35,326 nucleotides of DNA, taken from a virus (lineage: Duplodnaviria; Heunggongvirae; Uroviricota; Caudoviricetes). This document shows, piece by piece, positions 9,343 through 35,326 of this stretch; position 1 is the first letter of the stretch; every line of letters begins with the position of its first letter. The stretch covers positions 1 to 35,326 of IMG/VR virus record IMGVR_UViG_2778261588_000004; one strand, given 5' to 3'. The notes beneath the pieces are model-generated. The model was given only the letters and a program-made list of their open reading frames with translations, had not been told where the DNA came from and did not search any database. A program made the position numbers and the translations under genes.

Positions 9343-9362
<20 letters not shown>
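8043..9362 (-). CDS. C: Head protease / scaffold protein C, with nested in-frame Nu3 scaffold
   Basis: Lambda C N-terminus (M)TAELRNLPHIASMAFNEPLM begins at a GTG (plus 9360..9362, cac); 439 codons; S49-type protease region; the start overlaps the end of B as in lambda. Confidence 0.85.
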
Positions 9363-13075
<3,713 letters not shown>

Positions 13076-13752
13076 ATTCCTTCATTTTTTCAGCGGACTC
13101 AACGCATTTATTAGCCCCCTTCGCAACCAGCTCTTTTAGATAAGCCAATTGTCTGCCTGTCAATTCAGGGAATTTTCTTTGCATCGAAAGCGGAATACTG
13201 TCCAAAACAGATGCCAGTTCTCCGGATAACCGGGACAGGGCAAAAATAGAGAAAGCTGTATCAATCACCTTATGCTCTGCAACCTGGTTTTTTAACCGCT
13301 GAGAAATAGCCTGTTCTTCCGTCAGGTTAACCCTGGCCTTAAGTAGCCTTTCCTCAAGATCATTTTCACCACCTGAAGATTTCTGGTTTTGTTGACGTCG
13401 CTCGCGATCTATCTCCAGTACAGTTTTAACGTCATAGAAAACCTCTCTCCCCCGGCGCTCAACAGGAGGAACACCCCATTTATCAAATGCCTGTACTGAG
13501 ATACCGATGGAGGAGGCCATGTCGCTTTTATTCAATAAAAAGGCCACAGTCCCTCCATAAACCACCGGCAAAAAAGCAATACAACAACCACGTTTTTTGT
13601 AAAACCCTCTGATTTTACATGCTTTTTCGTATAAGAAAGATCATCAGGTTGTTGTGTTTATTTTTCTTTCTTATTACTTATCAAGTAGATATATCAAACG
13701 ATAAAACAACAACCATCACCTCAAAAAAACTCGTAAATAGCGAAAACCCGCG

Positions 13753-15515: not shown

Positions 15516-15809
15516 ATGAAAAAAATGCTACTCGCTACTGCGCTGGCCCTGCTTATTACAGGATGTGCTCAACAGACGTTTACTGTTCAAAACAAACAGA
15601 CAGCAGTAGCACCAAAGGAAACCATCACCCATCATTTCTTCGTTTCTGGAATTGGGCAGAAGAAAACTGTCGATGCAGCCAAAATTTGTGGCGGCGCAGA
15701 AAATGTTGTTAAAACAGAAACCCAGCAAACATTCGTAAATGGATTGCTCGGTTTTATTACTTTAGGCATTTATACTCCGCTGGAAGCGCGTGTGTATTGC
15801 TCAAAATAA
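15516..15809 (+). CDS. bor: Bor lipoprotein (serum-resistance lipoprotein of lambdoid prophages)
   Basis: 97-aa ORF MKKMLLATALALLITGCAQQTF... with lipobox LITGC; opposite orientation to the lysis genes, as bor is in lambda. Confidence 0.92.
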   Translation: MKKMLLATALALLITGCAQQTFTVQNKQTAVAPKETITHHFFVSGIGQKKTVDAAKICGGAENVVKTETQQTFVNGLLGFITLGIYTPLEARVYCSK

Positions 15810-18203: not shown

Positions 18204-18235
18204 CCGCCCGTGCCTCCCAGCGCGGGCTTTTTTAT
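18204..18235 (+). terminator. Weak plus-strand hairpin plus T-run (half of a back-to-back terminator pair)
   Basis: GCCCG (18206..18210) / CGGGC (18223..18227) with 12-nt loop, then TTTTTT (18228..18233). Confidence 0.3.
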
Positions 18236-18262
18236 CCAAAAAATACCCCTCCGGAGAGGGGT
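18236..18262 (-). terminator. Intrinsic terminator in the late-operon leader (tR'-like candidate)
   Basis: Minus sense ACCCCTC-TCCG-GAGGGGT followed by ATTTTTTGG; ~480 nt upstream of the holin start. Confidence 0.5.
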
Positions 18263-18552
18263 ATCATACAAGGGGATGACCATAATGCATGGTGCCGGGT
18301 GCCTCCCGGTGAGTCCGGCATCAGCATACGAACCCGCGATTATCCCAGAACTGACTGCTGATTCGCCCCGCCGCTTAGGGGGATTCACCATGCGTTTTTT
18401 TATTTACAAACTCTTCGCCAGACAAACAACCATTAACTGGCTGAATTGTGAGGTATTTCAATTTTTAGAAAACTGACCAACCTCCGCTTATACGCCGGGC
18501 ATGGAGCGGATACAAAAAAGCCCCGCAAAAGCAGATCAGAAGGATTCGTTGT

Positions 18553-27045: not shown

Positions 27046-27626
27046 GCGTTAGTTTCTCCACGGACACAAAACGCCACGACGCCCGGAGCTGCACACTCGC
27101 GGGCGTCACTCTTTTCTGAAGCGCAGAAGATTTTGTAGAACAGTGCTGCATGCTCCTGGAGCTTCGAAATTGACAGATACAACTCATCATTAATTGCTGT
27201 CTGTTCATGTGGCTCCACTACCCCATCTTCGATTGCCGAACGAATCTGCTTTGAGTAACTCCCGATCTGTTCAATGACTTCCAGTAGACGTTGGTTGATA
27301 TCAGCGTTCTCTACTTCCTCAATTTCAGGAAGTGATACAAACACCCCACCAGCAGACTGTGCGACAGCATCCGCAATGTGATGTGTACTAGCCGCACGCT
27401 GTAAAACCATTGCCCATCCCAACGGAAAAAACTGATCACCATCGGCACGAAGGCGGTTGAATAAAGCGTTCTCTGTTACATCCAGCCACTCAGCTGCTTC
27501 AGCGTAACCACCCGGCAACGCCGCGATAGTTTTTCTGACAGCTTTCACGTACCACTCAGGTTGTTTTTCTACTTTCCAGTGATGCTTACCCACGGCTATC
27601 TCCTTAAAACTGTGGTTACTTTCCAT
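27042..27626 (-). CDS. CII-like regulatory protein (CP76-type, tentative)
   Basis: 194 aa, immediately downstream of and overlapping the Cro-like gene, where cII sits in lambdoid phages; family from memory. Confidence 0.55.
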
Positions 27627-27864
27627 CTGATAAGTCTTTAATCTTTTGAAAAATATCTGGACGTAATTTTTCTTTTGATACGCCAGTGGTCATTTCAATG
27701 AATATCGAGAGCTTTGCAGGGGGACGCTTTTCTCTGTTCAACCAGTTCCAGACATGTTGTTGCTTTACTAAACGACCACTGCTGGCTGTGAGCTTCCGAG
27801 CCAATTCTGATTGACCACCAGCCAGAGCGATTGCCTCTGATAAGGCTAATTGCTCAGGTGTCAT
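27616..27864 (-). CDS. cro: Cro-like HTH repressor
   Basis: 82 aa; divergent from cI across the operator region; AGGAG 6 nt upstream of ATG; HTH segment SELARKLTASSGRLVKQQHVWNWLN. Confidence 0.65.
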   Translation of the reverse strand: MTPEQLALSEAIALAGGQSELARKLTASSGRLVKQQHVWNWLNREKRPPAKLSIFIEMTTGVSKEKLRPDIFQKIKDLSDGK

Positions 27865-28001: not shown

Positions 28002-28688
28002 GTGAAAACATTGGCAGAAAGACTAAAAAGCGAAAGAGAAAAAGCAGGAATGAGTCAGGCGCAACTAGCTGAAAAAATTGGGCTTTCACAACAATCCGTA
28101 GCAAAAATCGAGAATGGAGAAACTCAACAGCCTCGGAAAATTAAAGAGATTGCTAAAGTGTTAGGGGTTTCTCAAAAGTGGTTGCAATTGGGCATTGAGG
28201 ATAACGCGTCTTTCCCAGACCTTGTTGTAAAGGAGGCTGAAAGTACAACATTAGATCCTGACATTTTTGCAAACATTCCTGTCCTAGATGTCGAGTTATC
28301 AGCGGGTAATGGATGTTTGGCTGAAATAGTTGAATCAACTGTAGACTGGTTCCCGCTAAGAAGGATTGATTTAAGAAAAGCTGGTGTATGTGTCTCCAAT
28401 GCAAAGATCGTAAAAATTTGGGGTAATAGTTTACTACCTGTACTTAACAATGGAGATTTTGTTGCTGTTGATGTTTCCCAAACAGTTCCTATTCGTGATG
28501 GGGATCTTTATGCTATACGTGATGGCGTATTACTTAGAGTTAAAATATTGATCAATTTACCTGACGGTGGTCTGATTCTAAGAAGTTTCAATAAAGATGA
28601 GTATCCAGATGAAATACTCACCTTCGAAGATAGGCGTTCCAGAATTCACGTTATAGGTAGAGTATTCTGGTCATCGCGCACTTGGTAA
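28002..28688 (+). CDS. cI: CI-type prophage repressor (HTH plus S24 LexA-like autopeptidase domain)
   Basis: GTG start with GAGGGGG 8 nt upstream; N-terminal HTH (MSQAQLAEKIGLSQQSVAKIENGE); Ala-Gly cleavage site (ELSAGNG); C-terminal S24 fold with candidate Ser (WGNSLLP) and Lys (LLRVK). Confidence 0.88.
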   Translation: MKTLAERLKSEREKAGMSQAQLAEKIGLSQQSVAKIENGETQQPRKIKEIAKVLGVSQKWLQLGIEDNASFPDLVVKEAESTTLDPDIFANIPVLDVELSAGNGCLAEIVESTVDWFPLRRIDLRKAGVCVSNAKIVKIWGNSLLPVLNNGDFVAVDVSQTVPIRDGDLYAIRDGVLLRVKILINLPDGGLILRSFNKDEYPDEILTFEDRRSRIHVIGRVFWSSRTW

Positions 28689-28861
28689 TGCATCAAAAAA
28701 CATTCCTTCAGAAATTTAGTTACCATTATTACCCGCCTTTTCAATCTTCCTCCCGTGATTTGAGAGTTTCCAATCACGGAAGGAAAGTGTCCATTGTGTA
28801 ATTAAAAGCGCATCGTCCATACAACCTCCTTTTTTGATAACCCTTGCCCTCATTTCACATC

Positions 28862-28920
28862 CGTCAAAACCACATAAAGTTGTTGACAACAACCAAAACA
28901 ACAACTAGATTACAACTTAA
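28862..28920 (+). promoter_or_regulatory. OL: OL operator / pL promoter
   Basis: Same half-site family as OR: near-perfect 15-bp palindrome GTTGTTGACAACAAC, ACAACAACT, CAACTTAAAGATGTTG; perfect -35 TTGACA (28873..28878), 17-nt spacer, -10 TAGATT (28896..28901), pointing away from cI. Confidence 0.6.
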
Positions 28921-29002
28921 AGATGTTGCAGTAACGAACAGGCAGGACGCCCACGAAGTAGCCGCCGGTGGCGTATGAATGACCGGGTGATTCGTTAGCA
29001 AC

Positions 29003-29030
29003 AAAAAAGCGCCCAACAGGACGCTTAGCT
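29003..29030 (-). terminator. Intrinsic terminator after the orphan immunity-region gene
   Basis: Minus sense AGCGTCC-TGTT-GGGCGCT (one G-U pair) followed by TTTTTTGTTG; 35-60 nt downstream of the stop at 29065. Confidence 0.5.
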
Positions 29031-29064
29031 CTTTAACAATCTGGATATCCACAACAGTAGTAAT

Positions 29065-29556
29065 CTACAGATTGCCGTTAAGTTTTCTGGACAACTCCTC
29101 AATGGATGGAGGCGATACGTAATCCGGATTTTTATTCATCAGAAACTTATTTTCACAGTGGAGGCACCTGCTTTTATGAAAAAGCTCATCTTCGCTAACC
29201 GGGAATGGTTGAAGTATCGATACTATCTTTTGTCCAAAACATTTTGGGCAAAGATGCATGGTTATGCTGCCACCGTTCACGATTACCTCCTTCGAGTATA
29301 CAAAAGTACCCGACTCAAGTTGGTTAAGGATATAGCCTTCCGTCTGAGCCTCAAAGTTTTCGAATTCTGCAATTTTAGCTTTGAGAGAAGCATTTATTTC
29401 TTGATAAGAGCCCACCAGTTCAACGAGAGACACGCATTCGCGCTGAATAGACGCAAGCTTTGAGTTCAGCTCACCAATAGCCGCATTTACTTCAGCTTGA
29501 GTTTTTGCCTCGTTCATTAGTTTTGCAATCTGGGCTGTTTCACGAATAGCCGTCAT
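29065..29556 (-). CDS. Hypothetical protein: N-terminal coiled coil plus C-terminal CxxC...CxxC zinc ribbon
   Basis: 163 aa from the Met at 29556 (the track ORF reaches 29844 through GC-rich DNA); heptad-like N-terminus; CPKC ... CLHC pair; AT-rich relative to neighbours; antisense to pL; own terminator. Confidence 0.55.
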   Translation of the reverse strand: MTAIRETAQIAKLMNEAKTQAEVNAAIGELNSKLASIQRECVSLVELVGSYQEINASLKAKIAEFENFEAQTEGYILNQLESGTFVYSKEVIVNGGSITMHLCPKCFGQKIVSILQPFPVSEDELFHKSRCLHCENKFLMNKNPDYVSPPSIEELSRKLNGNL

Positions 29557-29591
29557 TGCTGCCGTTAATTCAGCGATCACATTGAATACTC

Positions 29592-29650
29592 TTATTGTTG
29601 TTGGGGATATCCAGATTAACCGAATCCTTGTTGTTGGGGAATAACCAGGT
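29592..29650. repeat. Direct repeat pair upstream of the orphan gene
   Basis: TTGTTGTTGGGGATATCCAG (from ~29594) and TTGTTGTTGGGGAATAACCAG (from ~29629), two ~20-bp copies about 35 bp apart. Confidence 0.55.
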
Positions 29651-29865
29651 CCACCTCGCCTGATGTGGCTAAAAGCAGGCACATAACAGCTAAGTATTTT
29701 CAACCAGAGAGAATCCTTAGCGTTGTGGTGAATGCGGCTCAGCGCACGCGGGTTAAGGTTGAGGCTGACAGTCGACCTTCTGTGGATACCCACCCGCCTG
29801 GTGTGCAACCTTCGCCAGGCACCGGGAGGCACCCGGCACCACAACTTTATGCTGTGTGTAGTCCT

Positions 29866-29912
29866 GGCGGTACCAGCTTGTACCCTTGCTTCCGGCTGGT
29901 ACCGTCCTTTTT
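29866..29912 (+). terminator. Intrinsic terminator-like hairpin in the early-left leader
   Basis: Stem 29866..29877 / 29895..29906 (core GGTACCAGC/GCTGGTACC), 17-nt loop, then CTTTTT (29907..29912). Confidence 0.45.
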
Positions 29913-30001
29913 ACAAAACAGAGAAGAGCATCACCGGACGACGGGCTCATAACCCAATCCATCCGGGCGGCTGCCACCGCAGGTGTTCTTCTCTGTTTTG
30001 T
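29913..30001 (+). other. Perfect 15-bp inverted repeat enclosing a 59-nt GC-rich segment (candidate structured RNA element)
   Basis: ACAAAACAGAGAAGA (29913..29927) and TCTTCTCTGTTTTGT (29987..30001) are exact reverse complements; the enclosed segment has further internal pairings; ~50 nt upstream of the first early-left gene. Confidence 0.45.
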
Positions 30002-30049
30002 GGAGAAACCAACCGACCTTGCAGGGTCGATATGATGAGGAGCAGCAAA

Positions 30050-30412
30050 ATGGCTAGCGAACGCAGTACTGATGTGCAGGCATTTATCGGGGAGCTGGAC
30101 GGCGGCGTATTTGAAACCAAAATCGGCGCAGTTCTCAGTGAGGTCGCTTCCGGTGTGATGAACACGAAAACCAAAGGGAAGGTCTCACTCAATCTGGAAA
30201 TCGAACCATTTGATGAGAACCGTGTGAAAATCAAACACAAACTCTCATATGTTCGCCCGACTAACCGCGGGAAAATTTCCGAAGAAGACACCACCGAAAC
30301 GCCGATGTATGTCAATCGCGGTGGTCGCCTGACTATTCTGCAGGAAGACCAGGGACAATTACTGACTCTTGCCGGTGAACCTGACGGAAAACTCCGCGCA
30401 GCAGGTCGTTAA
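30050..30412 (+). CDS. YfdP-like early-left protein (120 aa)
   Basis: ATG at 30050 with AGGAG 7 nt upstream; the track ORF reaches back to 29732 through the structured region; first gene of a CPS-53-like yfdPQRST-type operon. Confidence 0.55.
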   Translation: MASERSTDVQAFIGELDGGVFETKIGAVLSEVASGVMNTKTKGKVSLNLEIEPFDENRVKIKHKLSYVRPTNRGKISEEDTTETPMYVNRGGRLTILQEDQGQLLTLAGEPDGKLRAAGR

Positions 30413-34871: not shown

Positions 34872-34899
34872 AAAAAACCCGCTTCGGCGGGTTAGTTTT
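34872..34899. terminator. Bidirectional intrinsic terminator between convergent genes
   Basis: Hairpin AACCCGC-TTCG-GCGGGTT (34876..34893) flanked by AAAAAA (34872..34877) on one side and T-rich TAGTTTTC on the other. Confidence 0.65.
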
Positions 34900-35326
34900 C
34901 ATCTTTATAATTCTGGGCAATTCGCGCCAGATAGCTCATCACATCATGTTTTCTTGCTTTTTCATGTGCATCGGGATACATAATAGCAATGAGTGAATAT
35001 TTATTCTCATAAAGCTCACCTTGGACATACACAAGACAAGCATCATTATCAGGATCACCTTTCTTGCAGACCCTATCCGGTTGTGGAAGTTTCTCGGGAA
35101 ACTTGTTTGGCGGTAGACAAAGATGGATATGCATCAACCCAGCCCGAAAAGCACCATAAGGCTGAGTATACGCAACGTCCCTACCGAAATAATGCGGAAG
35201 CTCACCGGTTGCTTTGTATCTCTTGAAATCATCAATGATAGAAGACTCTAGCTCCGGGAATTTGAGAAAAACTTCATCAAAAAATTCAGCTCTAGTTTCT
35301 GGATTAATAGAGACTTCTAGATGCAT
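34892..35326 (-). CDS. YafO-family toxin-like protein; start at window edge
   Basis: Shares YafO motifs (GELPHYFGRDVAYTQPY; CLVYVQGELYENKYSLIAIMYPDAHEKARKH); ATG is the last codon in the window so upstream context is unseen. Confidence 0.6.
   Translation of the reverse strand: MHLEVSINPETRAEFFDEVFLKFPELESSIIDDFKRYKATGELPHYFGRDVAYTQPYGAFRAGLMHIHLCLPPNKFPEKLPQPDRVCKKGDPDNDACLVYVQGELYENKYSLIAIMYPDAHEKARKHDVMSYLARIAQNYKDEN

Follow-up and report, generated by a model that had tools for sequence, protein, structure and literature searches.

The immunity and early-left region of phage lambda carries SieB and RexAB, which are expressed in the lysogen as abortive-infection and exclusion genes, sieB lying antisense to pL. 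Another prophage-encoded defence protein is Rip1 (ring-interacting pore 1), which, according to a 2026 review (PMC13434031) of the work of Patel et al. (2026, Nature 651:1060), is encoded between the terminase genes of a Pseudomonas aeruginosa prophage and is harmless when present alone. As described in the same review, Rip1 is triggered by the portal proteins of Pseudomonas phages or by the small terminase of Escherichia coli phages, and cryo-EM placed 12 Rip1 subunits around an 11-mer ring of small terminase, the C-terminal half of the protein contacting the ring and the N-terminal half being an amphipathic helix (PMC13434031). The complex is a pore, which released dye from liposomes and by which the infected cell is lysed prematurely; homologues are stated there to be widespread in proteobacteria, chiefly in prophages (PMC13434031). 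A conference report is consistent with this account (PMC12908700).

The window, that is, the whole stretch of 35,326 nucleotides analysed here, is a lambdoid prophage, and the region under study is identical to that of a prophage in E. coli FDAARGOS_1058. Between pL and yfdP it contains a minus-strand gene which is convergent with pL and which, with its flanks, forms a cassette crossed in antisense by the transcript from pL (Table 1). A sequence-only reading of the same DNA had compared the position of this gene, antisense to pL, with that of sieB and rex. The comparison was confirmed, and the rip1 gene of phage HK446 was also found to be antisense in a pL operon, where it adjoins N. The operator-like repeats around pL were found by repeat search in the cI-cro intergenic region as well; since these repeats accompany a promoter match, the earlier placement of OL/pL is sound. 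The gene had further been described as AT-rich relative to its neighbours, which is correct for the right side (GC 0.40-0.45 versus 0.52-0.60) but not for the cI side, which is equally AT-rich.

Two other observations concern the surroundings of the gene. About 60 nt past the cI stop codon there is a hairpin (28747-28785) with 17-nt arms, TTCCTCCCGTGATTTGA and TCCAATCACGGAAGGAA, a 5-nt loop and no U-tract, which may be the end of the cI transcript. The prophage contains further accessory genes, namely a YafO-family type II toxin gene at the edge of the window (34892-35326, minus strand) and the gene of the Bor serum-resistance lipoprotein (15516-15809, plus strand). The small terminase of the prophage itself is encoded at 13041-13547 and its portal protein at 9343-10944.

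Table 1. Positions in the window of the Rip1-like gene, its flanking elements and the neighbouring immunity-region features
Feature	Position	Strand	Basis
cro-like gene	27616-27864	minus	
cI repressor gene	28002-28688	plus	
pL promoter, TTGACA-17-TAGATT, with operator-like repeats	28883-28911	plus	promoter scan, 10/12 match
Intrinsic terminator, stem AAGCGTCC/GGGCGCTT (29026-29007), loop TGTT, then TTTTTTGTTG	28997..29026	minus	terminator scan
Conserved 3' module GTTAAAGAGC, between left inverted-repeat arm and terminator	29027..29037	minus	cross-locus alignment
Left inverted-repeat arm (26 nt), AATCTGGATATCCACAACAGTAGTAA, within the gene's 3' UTR	29038..29063	unstranded	repeat search, 85% complementary
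Rip1-family gene, 171 aa from the most likely start, GTG	29065..29580	minus	ORF list, homologue starts, RefSeq, profile and fold searches
Shine-Dalgarno-like AAGAG, 8 nt before GTG	29589..29593	minus	read from sequence; A(A/T)GAG kept in alignment
Right inverted-repeat arm, equal to proximal direct-repeat copy, CTGGATATCCCCAACAACAA on gene strand	29592..29617	unstranded	repeat search, alignments
Candidate weak promoter, TTCCCC (29641-29636), 17 nt, TAATCT (29618-29613)	29613..29641	minus	conservation only
Distal direct-repeat copy, CCTGGTTATTCCCCAACAACAA on gene strand	29628..29650	unstranded	end of variable slot versus SfV-type backbones
Distal element of about 40 nt, GCCTGCTTTTAGCCACATCAGGCGAGGTGG on gene strand	29651..29690	unstranded	conserved across loci
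yfdP, first early-left gene	starts 30050		RefSeq annotation

The gene had originally been delimited as an ORF of 163 aa (29065..29556); its end at 29065 stands, while its start was set 24 nt too far in. The homologues begin eight residues earlier, with MIAELSAAM, and a GTG occurs at the equivalent position in 16 of 17 homologous loci, the remaining one having TTG. The RefSeq annotation of the identical genome (WP_000559922.1) also gives 29065..29580. From the homologue starts, the conservation of the GTG and the RefSeq coordinates it is concluded that the true start is most likely the GTG at 29580 and that the protein would comprise 171 residues, not 163.

A plus-strand ORF of 101 aa (29158..29463) overlaps the gene, and it could be supposed that this ORF, transcribed from pL, is the real gene and the minus-strand ORF its by-product. 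Such a supposition is favoured by an open stretch of 88-133 codons found on the opposite strand in all the full-length homologous loci and by the near absence of the sense codons TTA, CTA and TCA from codons 45-145. However, the third codon positions of the minus frame are the most variable, and the comparison with 13 homologues gave dN/dS values of 0.13-0.35 for the minus frame, with dS saturated, versus 0.6-0.9 for the codon-aligned plus frame; as judged from these values, purifying selection is acting on the minus frame. Moreover, the minus-frame protein has a solved homologue and a confident predicted fold, and the open shadow frame is accounted for by the codon usage of the gene, which prefers CTT and TCT and avoids TTA, CTA and TCA. 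The plus ORF, which the sequence-only reading had itself named as an alternative that would overturn its proposal, was ruled out as the real gene by the codon-position and dN/dS analysis, which leaves this alternative with next to no probability.

The codon usage is an observation in its own right. In codons 45-145 of the window gene and its homologues (loci L008-L026), CTT accounts for 69 of 111 Leu codons; across genera TCT is the commonest Ser codon in this segment, there is no TTA, and CTA and TCA hardly occur. This strong bias is kept across genera despite a saturated synonymous divergence, and its effect is that the strand read from pL retains an open shadow frame about 100 codons long.

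The gene product is almost certainly a divergent member of the known Rip1 family. No family had been recognised for it in the sequence-only reading; nevertheless, the protein matches phrog_1244 of PHROGs (E 2.4e-58; annotated function unknown), and a profile built from 41 members, when compared with the PDB, matched 9oox_L, Rip1, as the sole solved structure (E 9e-33, positions 3-152). The protein was recognised only through PHROGs and through comparison with the PDB by sequence and by fold, no significant family being found when all the models of Pfam, PADLOC and NCBIfam were scanned. The window protein as a single sequence matched 9oox_L with E 2.7e-7, BLASTP to HK446_037 gave 27% identity over 148 aa (E 4e-11), and the local family HMM scored HK446 Rip1 at E 5e-37. 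PDB entry 9oox is, as its title states, a structure solved by cryo-EM in which Rip1 of phage HK446 is in complex with the small terminase of T6. A match to a housekeeping phage protein, which had been named beforehand as an outcome that would tell against an anti-phage role, was not obtained in the Pfam, PHROGs, PADLOC and NCBIfam scans.

The AlphaFold2 model (pLDDT 89.7) consists of two helices, residues 2-23 and 28-79, followed by a beta-rich domain (84-150) with the CxxC...CxxC motif, in agreement with the helical N-terminus and the following four-cysteine domain that had been read from the sequence. In the Foldseek comparison with the PDB only 9oox_L and 9oox_M were significant (probability 1.00), with TM values to the 9oox chains of up to 0.54 (query) and 0.69 (target). 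C111 and C114 (171-aa numbering) do not vary among 41 diverse members, in which the conservation of C139 and C142 is at least 90%; all four cysteines are also present in the HK446, HK620 and JBD30 proteins. The helical half is amphipathic, its hydrophobic moment reaching 0.44 over residues 8-25, and no transmembrane segment or signal peptide was predicted (maximum 19-residue hydropathy 0.85). In full-length similarity, in fold, in the cysteines and in being a stand-alone antisense prophage gene with a putative promoter of its own, the window gene agrees with the Rip1 family.

An exhaustive profile search returned 2,774 clusters at 50% identity (E of 1e-10 or better), nearly all of 145-180 aa, and the named members of the family come from Enterobacterales, Pseudomonas and Chromobacterium. 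In tblastn searches of phage genomes, copies with 100% identity were found in PhiR29_1 and PhiR49_1 and copies with 48% identity in Klebsiella phages, and identity was about 30% in HK620 hkaP, in HK629/HK630 and in many Pseudomonas Casadabanvirus phages (DMS3, JBD30, MP38 and others). All four cysteines are aligned in these full-length matches. By comparison of the sequences, the group of the window protein is a distinct enterobacterial subfamily, with 50-75% identity within it and 27-30% to the characterised Rip1 proteins. When a genome is counted as positive with at least 80% of the query covered, 697 of the 5,426 complete E. coli genomes (about 13%) carry the cassette. With a phrog_1244 assignment, some 2,800 clusters and this frequency in E. 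coli, the gene is not the orphan it was first taken for.

The orientation of the gene recurs in its homologues. HK620 hkaP is antisense between hkaQ/N and cIII, and the O157:H7 copy, which has 93.6% nucleotide identity, is antisense just after a RacR-type repressor in a prophage at potC; these two, HK446 Rip1 and JBD30 gp30 are all encoded antisense within lytic operons. Of 15 loci from other genera, 14 have the gene converging on a downstream ORF of 126-313 aa, which from its position is presumably the repressor. In these loci rightward genes usually follow beyond the presumed repressor, and most of the ORFs lying farther upstream have the other orientation.

The elements which flank the gene proved to be conserved. 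The terminator that had been noted 35-60 nt past the stop is real and begins 38 nt past the stop codon; its stem is kept, with variable loops, in loci of Citrobacter, Kosakonia, Scandinavium, Buttiauxella, Enterobacter and Erwinia. The adjoining 3' module also follows an unrelated cargo (locus L035). The upstream pair of direct repeats was likewise recovered, TTGTTGTTGGGGA being exact at 29595 and 29628 and conserved across genera. A further element, absent from the sequence-only reading, is the 26-nt inverted repeat (29038-29063 / 29592-29617) which brackets the ORF and the core of which, GGATATCCAGATT, is kept from genus to genus. The pairing of this repeat in the window is made more favourable on the plus strand (pL transcript versus mRNA) by three G-U pairs, and the duplex energies calculated for 15 loci showed no consistent strand bias. 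An invertible switch was considered and rejected, the inverted junction (chimeric query, coverage of at least 80%) being present in 0 of 5,426 E. coli genomes and all the fetched loci having the same orientation. A conserved RNA fold of the 5' flank was not supported by RNAalifold (-3.5 kcal/mol, almost no covariation).

The promoter scan revealed no consensus sigma-70 promoter upstream of the gene. The hexamer positions of the candidate weak promoter are conserved in 15 loci, and both HK620 and HK446 contain TACCCC-17-TAAAAT, with the same spacing as in the window; we infer that the gene is expressed in the lysogen from this weak promoter of its own. The distal element also precedes hkaP in HK620 and rip1 in HK446, and the O157 copy has it as well. 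The element (plus strand CCACCTCGCCTGATGTGGCTAAAAGCAGGC...) was thus observed upstream of genes from two Rip1 subfamilies with only 28% protein identity (L001 3882-3913; L029), and it persists in the cassette-free backbones of SfV and mEp460_4F5. It may represent a recombination boundary or a regulatory site.

Read towards the gene, the 5' flank has the order distal element of about 40 nt, two direct repeats (TCCCCAACAACAA) at a distance of 33 nt, then AAGAG and GTG, the 5' module of about 110 nt comprising the distal element, the two direct repeats, the candidate weak promoter and the 5' UTR. The 3' flank is composed of GGATATCCAGATTGTTAAAGAGC and the terminator, and the 5' and 3' modules together form a 13-26-nt inverted repeat around the ORF. 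These flanks are nearly invariant across enterobacterial genera while the coding dS is saturated. In HK620 and HK446 the same distal element is followed by two repeats of another sequence at the same spacing.

Comparison with related backbones showed that 28933-28996 and the sequence from 29651 onward are common to SfV, SfIV and mEp460_4F5, the sequence between them being different. SfIV retains the terminator and left end up to 29044 and, from 29597 on, the repeat region, and between them it carries an unrelated gene of 144 aa; SfIV_36 and the other slot cargos were ruled out as Rip1 relatives. In E. coli genomes at least five unrelated cargos, all on the minus strand, follow this 5' module: the Rip1-like gene, a gene of the ECs1072 family and genes for an LprI-like secreted protein, for a protein of 167 aa and for a two-transmembrane protein, the module of the last being more diverged; none of these cargos gave a match in PADLOC. 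Among 120 IMG/VR contigs chosen by an exact 29-mer of the module, the ECs1072 gene was present in 72, the Rip1-like gene in 34 and the LprI-like gene in one. The LprI-like cassette possesses its own perfect inverted repeat of 13 nt, AATCTGGATGACT / AGTCATCCAGATT, built on the shared core, from which it seems that an inverted repeat on either side of the cargo is a feature that is preserved. The pL-proximal slot (28997-29650; loci L005 and L031-L035) is a variable hotspot, which in SfV and mEp460_4F5 holds plus-strand genes instead, one of them coding for an HTH_17 protein with a weak match to PADLOC mad1.

The combination of conserved flanks and cargo exchange may be the part of these results that is new. 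It is tempting to speculate, although we regard this as possible rather than probable, that the Rip1-like gene rides a portable moron cassette, a module devoted to the exchange and regulation of defence genes. Its flanks could act as recombination handles, the expression of a toxic cargo could be tuned by pairing of the 5' UTR with the 3' UTR or by the binding of some factor, and convergent transcription from pL could switch the cargo off on induction. If this were true, the slot would be a hotspot for the discovery of new anti-phage genes. The shared flanks and the variable cargo, which is without match in the defence databases, mark the pL-proximal slot for a defence-gene search.

Between the cassette and yfdP there is a GC-rich 'non-coding' stretch in which, at 29692-29915 on the plus strand, a sub-threshold match to the full model of STnc100 (RF02076), a prophage sRNA family, was detected; it reaches 42.4 bits, the gathering score being 47 (E 1.7e-7). 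The 402-nt stretch 29651-30052, in which this match lies, folds far better than shuffled sequences (z = -6.6), and RefSeq probably errs in annotating a 'frameshifted hypothetical protein' at 29725-30035. At 18234-18422 on the minus strand there is a strong match to STnc100 (115 bits, E 1e-24), between the DNA methyltransferase and holin genes, in the late-operon leader downstream of a Q-like antiterminator. The two matches indicate that the prophage carries two diverged copies, one after pL and one in the late region. STnc100 has been reported to be related to the PasD sRNAs of Stx phages (bioRxiv 10.64898/2026.05.13.724894).

The full mechanism, which combines expression in the lysogen from the gene's own promoter with formation of a Rip1 pore, probably operates in the window protein. 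The gene would then be a prophage accessory gene ('moron') for a 171-aa Rip1-family anti-phage protein. In the lysogen it would be transcribed from its own weak promoter in the conserved repeat region as far as the terminator (29026-28997), and the conserved GTG start would keep the protein level low, the product being soluble and, by itself, harmless. The later steps are drawn from the characterised homologues: when a foreign phage reached late expression, the four-cysteine beta domain would bind its small terminase or portal ring, the phage ring would template about 12 Rip1 subunits, and their N-terminal amphipathic helices would make a membrane pore. The inner membrane would thereby be breached before the virions were complete, and the cell would die with no phage released, that is, by abortive infection. 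On induction of the resident prophage the convergent lytic transcription may shut the gene off, a silencing which is proposed because the homologues are consistently antisense inside lytic operons. The suggestion that this is an anti-phage gene of the lysogen type thus gains backing from its homology (27% identity) to characterised Rip1 proteins, whereas exclusion in the classical sense, or the lysogeny maintenance that had been suggested with it, gives way to the mechanism of the family, abortive infection by a triggered pore. Literature searches for hkaP and phrog_1244 gave nothing functional, and no published experiment was found for this Rip1 subfamily.

A protein of this kind might instead confer superinfection exclusion, blocking DNA injection early and at the envelope rather than forming a late triggered pore. 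The homologue JBD30 gp30 (30% identity over 143 aa) is listed with the entry 'blocks phage genome injection' (Tsao et al. 2018, via PMC11445458 and its Appendix Table S1), and for HK620 hkaP the annotation of 2001 reads 'putative superinfection exclusion protein'. The hkaP annotation, however, is positional only, and the window protein has neither a signal peptide nor a transmembrane segment; later structural and genetic work on the family shows a late trigger, small terminase or portal, and a pore (PMC13434031). The genome-injection description of JBD30 gp30 is taken here to be an earlier interpretation of one and the same phenotype of protection, and a block of injection by the window protein is considered improbable.

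It is very unlikely that the protein is a regulatory or lysogeny-maintenance factor, a zinc-ribbon coiled-coil nucleic-acid binder acting on pL or on a neighbouring RNA. The location of the gene in the immunity region, adjoining pL and the STnc100-like RNA, and the near-palindromic TCTGGATATCCAGA-like sites on both sides of it would suit such a function, but the same flanks carry unrelated cargo, and the sites therefore belong to the cassette and not to the Rip1-like protein. Moreover, in Pseudomonas Mu-like phages the family is found between the terminase genes, far from the immunity region, and a defence role has been demonstrated for homologues (PMC13434031).

The gene itself belongs to a known family and is common, not orphan, and the sequence-only interpretation was right in kind. 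A 'hypothetical protein' becomes nameable as a probable Rip1-family abortive-infection pore, the cassette of which is present in about 13% of complete E. coli genomes, O157:H7 included, and the assignment is relevant to host range in phage therapy and to the immunity that prophages confer. As the subfamily is 27% identical to HK446 Rip1, it could show how the specificity for the trigger (small terminase versus portal) is encoded.

In comparison with the lambda genes, SieB and RexB are membrane proteins, whereas the window protein is without a transmembrane segment. A homologue of SieB, RexA or RexB was considered and rejected, no Pfam, PADLOC or NCBIfam family and no transmembrane helix being found, and the likeness is positional only. 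The tail assembly blocker Tab (JBD26 gp31; PMC10884400) resembles the window gene as an antisense prophage-expressed moron with its own promoter. It occupies the inter-terminase slot which in sister phages holds Rip1 homologues, and it acts late with an abortive outcome (PMC10884400). Nevertheless, Tab is an unrelated protein of 83 aa, which blocks tail assembly via the tape-measure protein and has an anti-Tab partner (PMC10884400); no anti-Tab-like partner gene was evident beside the window gene.

Closer relationships were found within the Rip1 family. JBD30 gp30 (164 aa, 30% identity over 143 aa, conserved CxxC...CxxC) is reported to protect against phage, and its gene, like that of the window, is opposite to the surrounding lytic operon. 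It is located in the inter-terminase slot of the late operon, whereas the window gene is early-left, and host and phage type differ. HK620 HkaP, found also in HK629 and HK630, belongs to the same family (29% identity, E 3e-21) and is encoded antisense in the pL operon. As in the window, a distal element of about 30 nt and two direct repeats about 34 nt apart lie upstream of it, the repeat sequence being TACCCCTACAG in HK620 and TCCCCAACAAC in the window. The hkaP gene is situated between N/hkaQ and cIII, in contrast to the window gene, which directly follows pL, and its 3' end is devoid of the 13-nt GGATATCCAGATT inverted repeat.

HK446 gp37 (PDB 9oox) is homologous over its full length, 164 aa compared with 171 aa, and the folds match. 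The two proteins are 27% identical, and that of the window has an additional C-terminal tail of about 20 residues. The window gene directly follows pL in an SfV/YfdP-type early-left region without N, whereas HK446 Rip1 adjoins N. Both genes are prophage-encoded and antisense inside a lytic operon, and both products combine an amphipathic helical N-terminal half with a four-cysteine beta C-terminal half.
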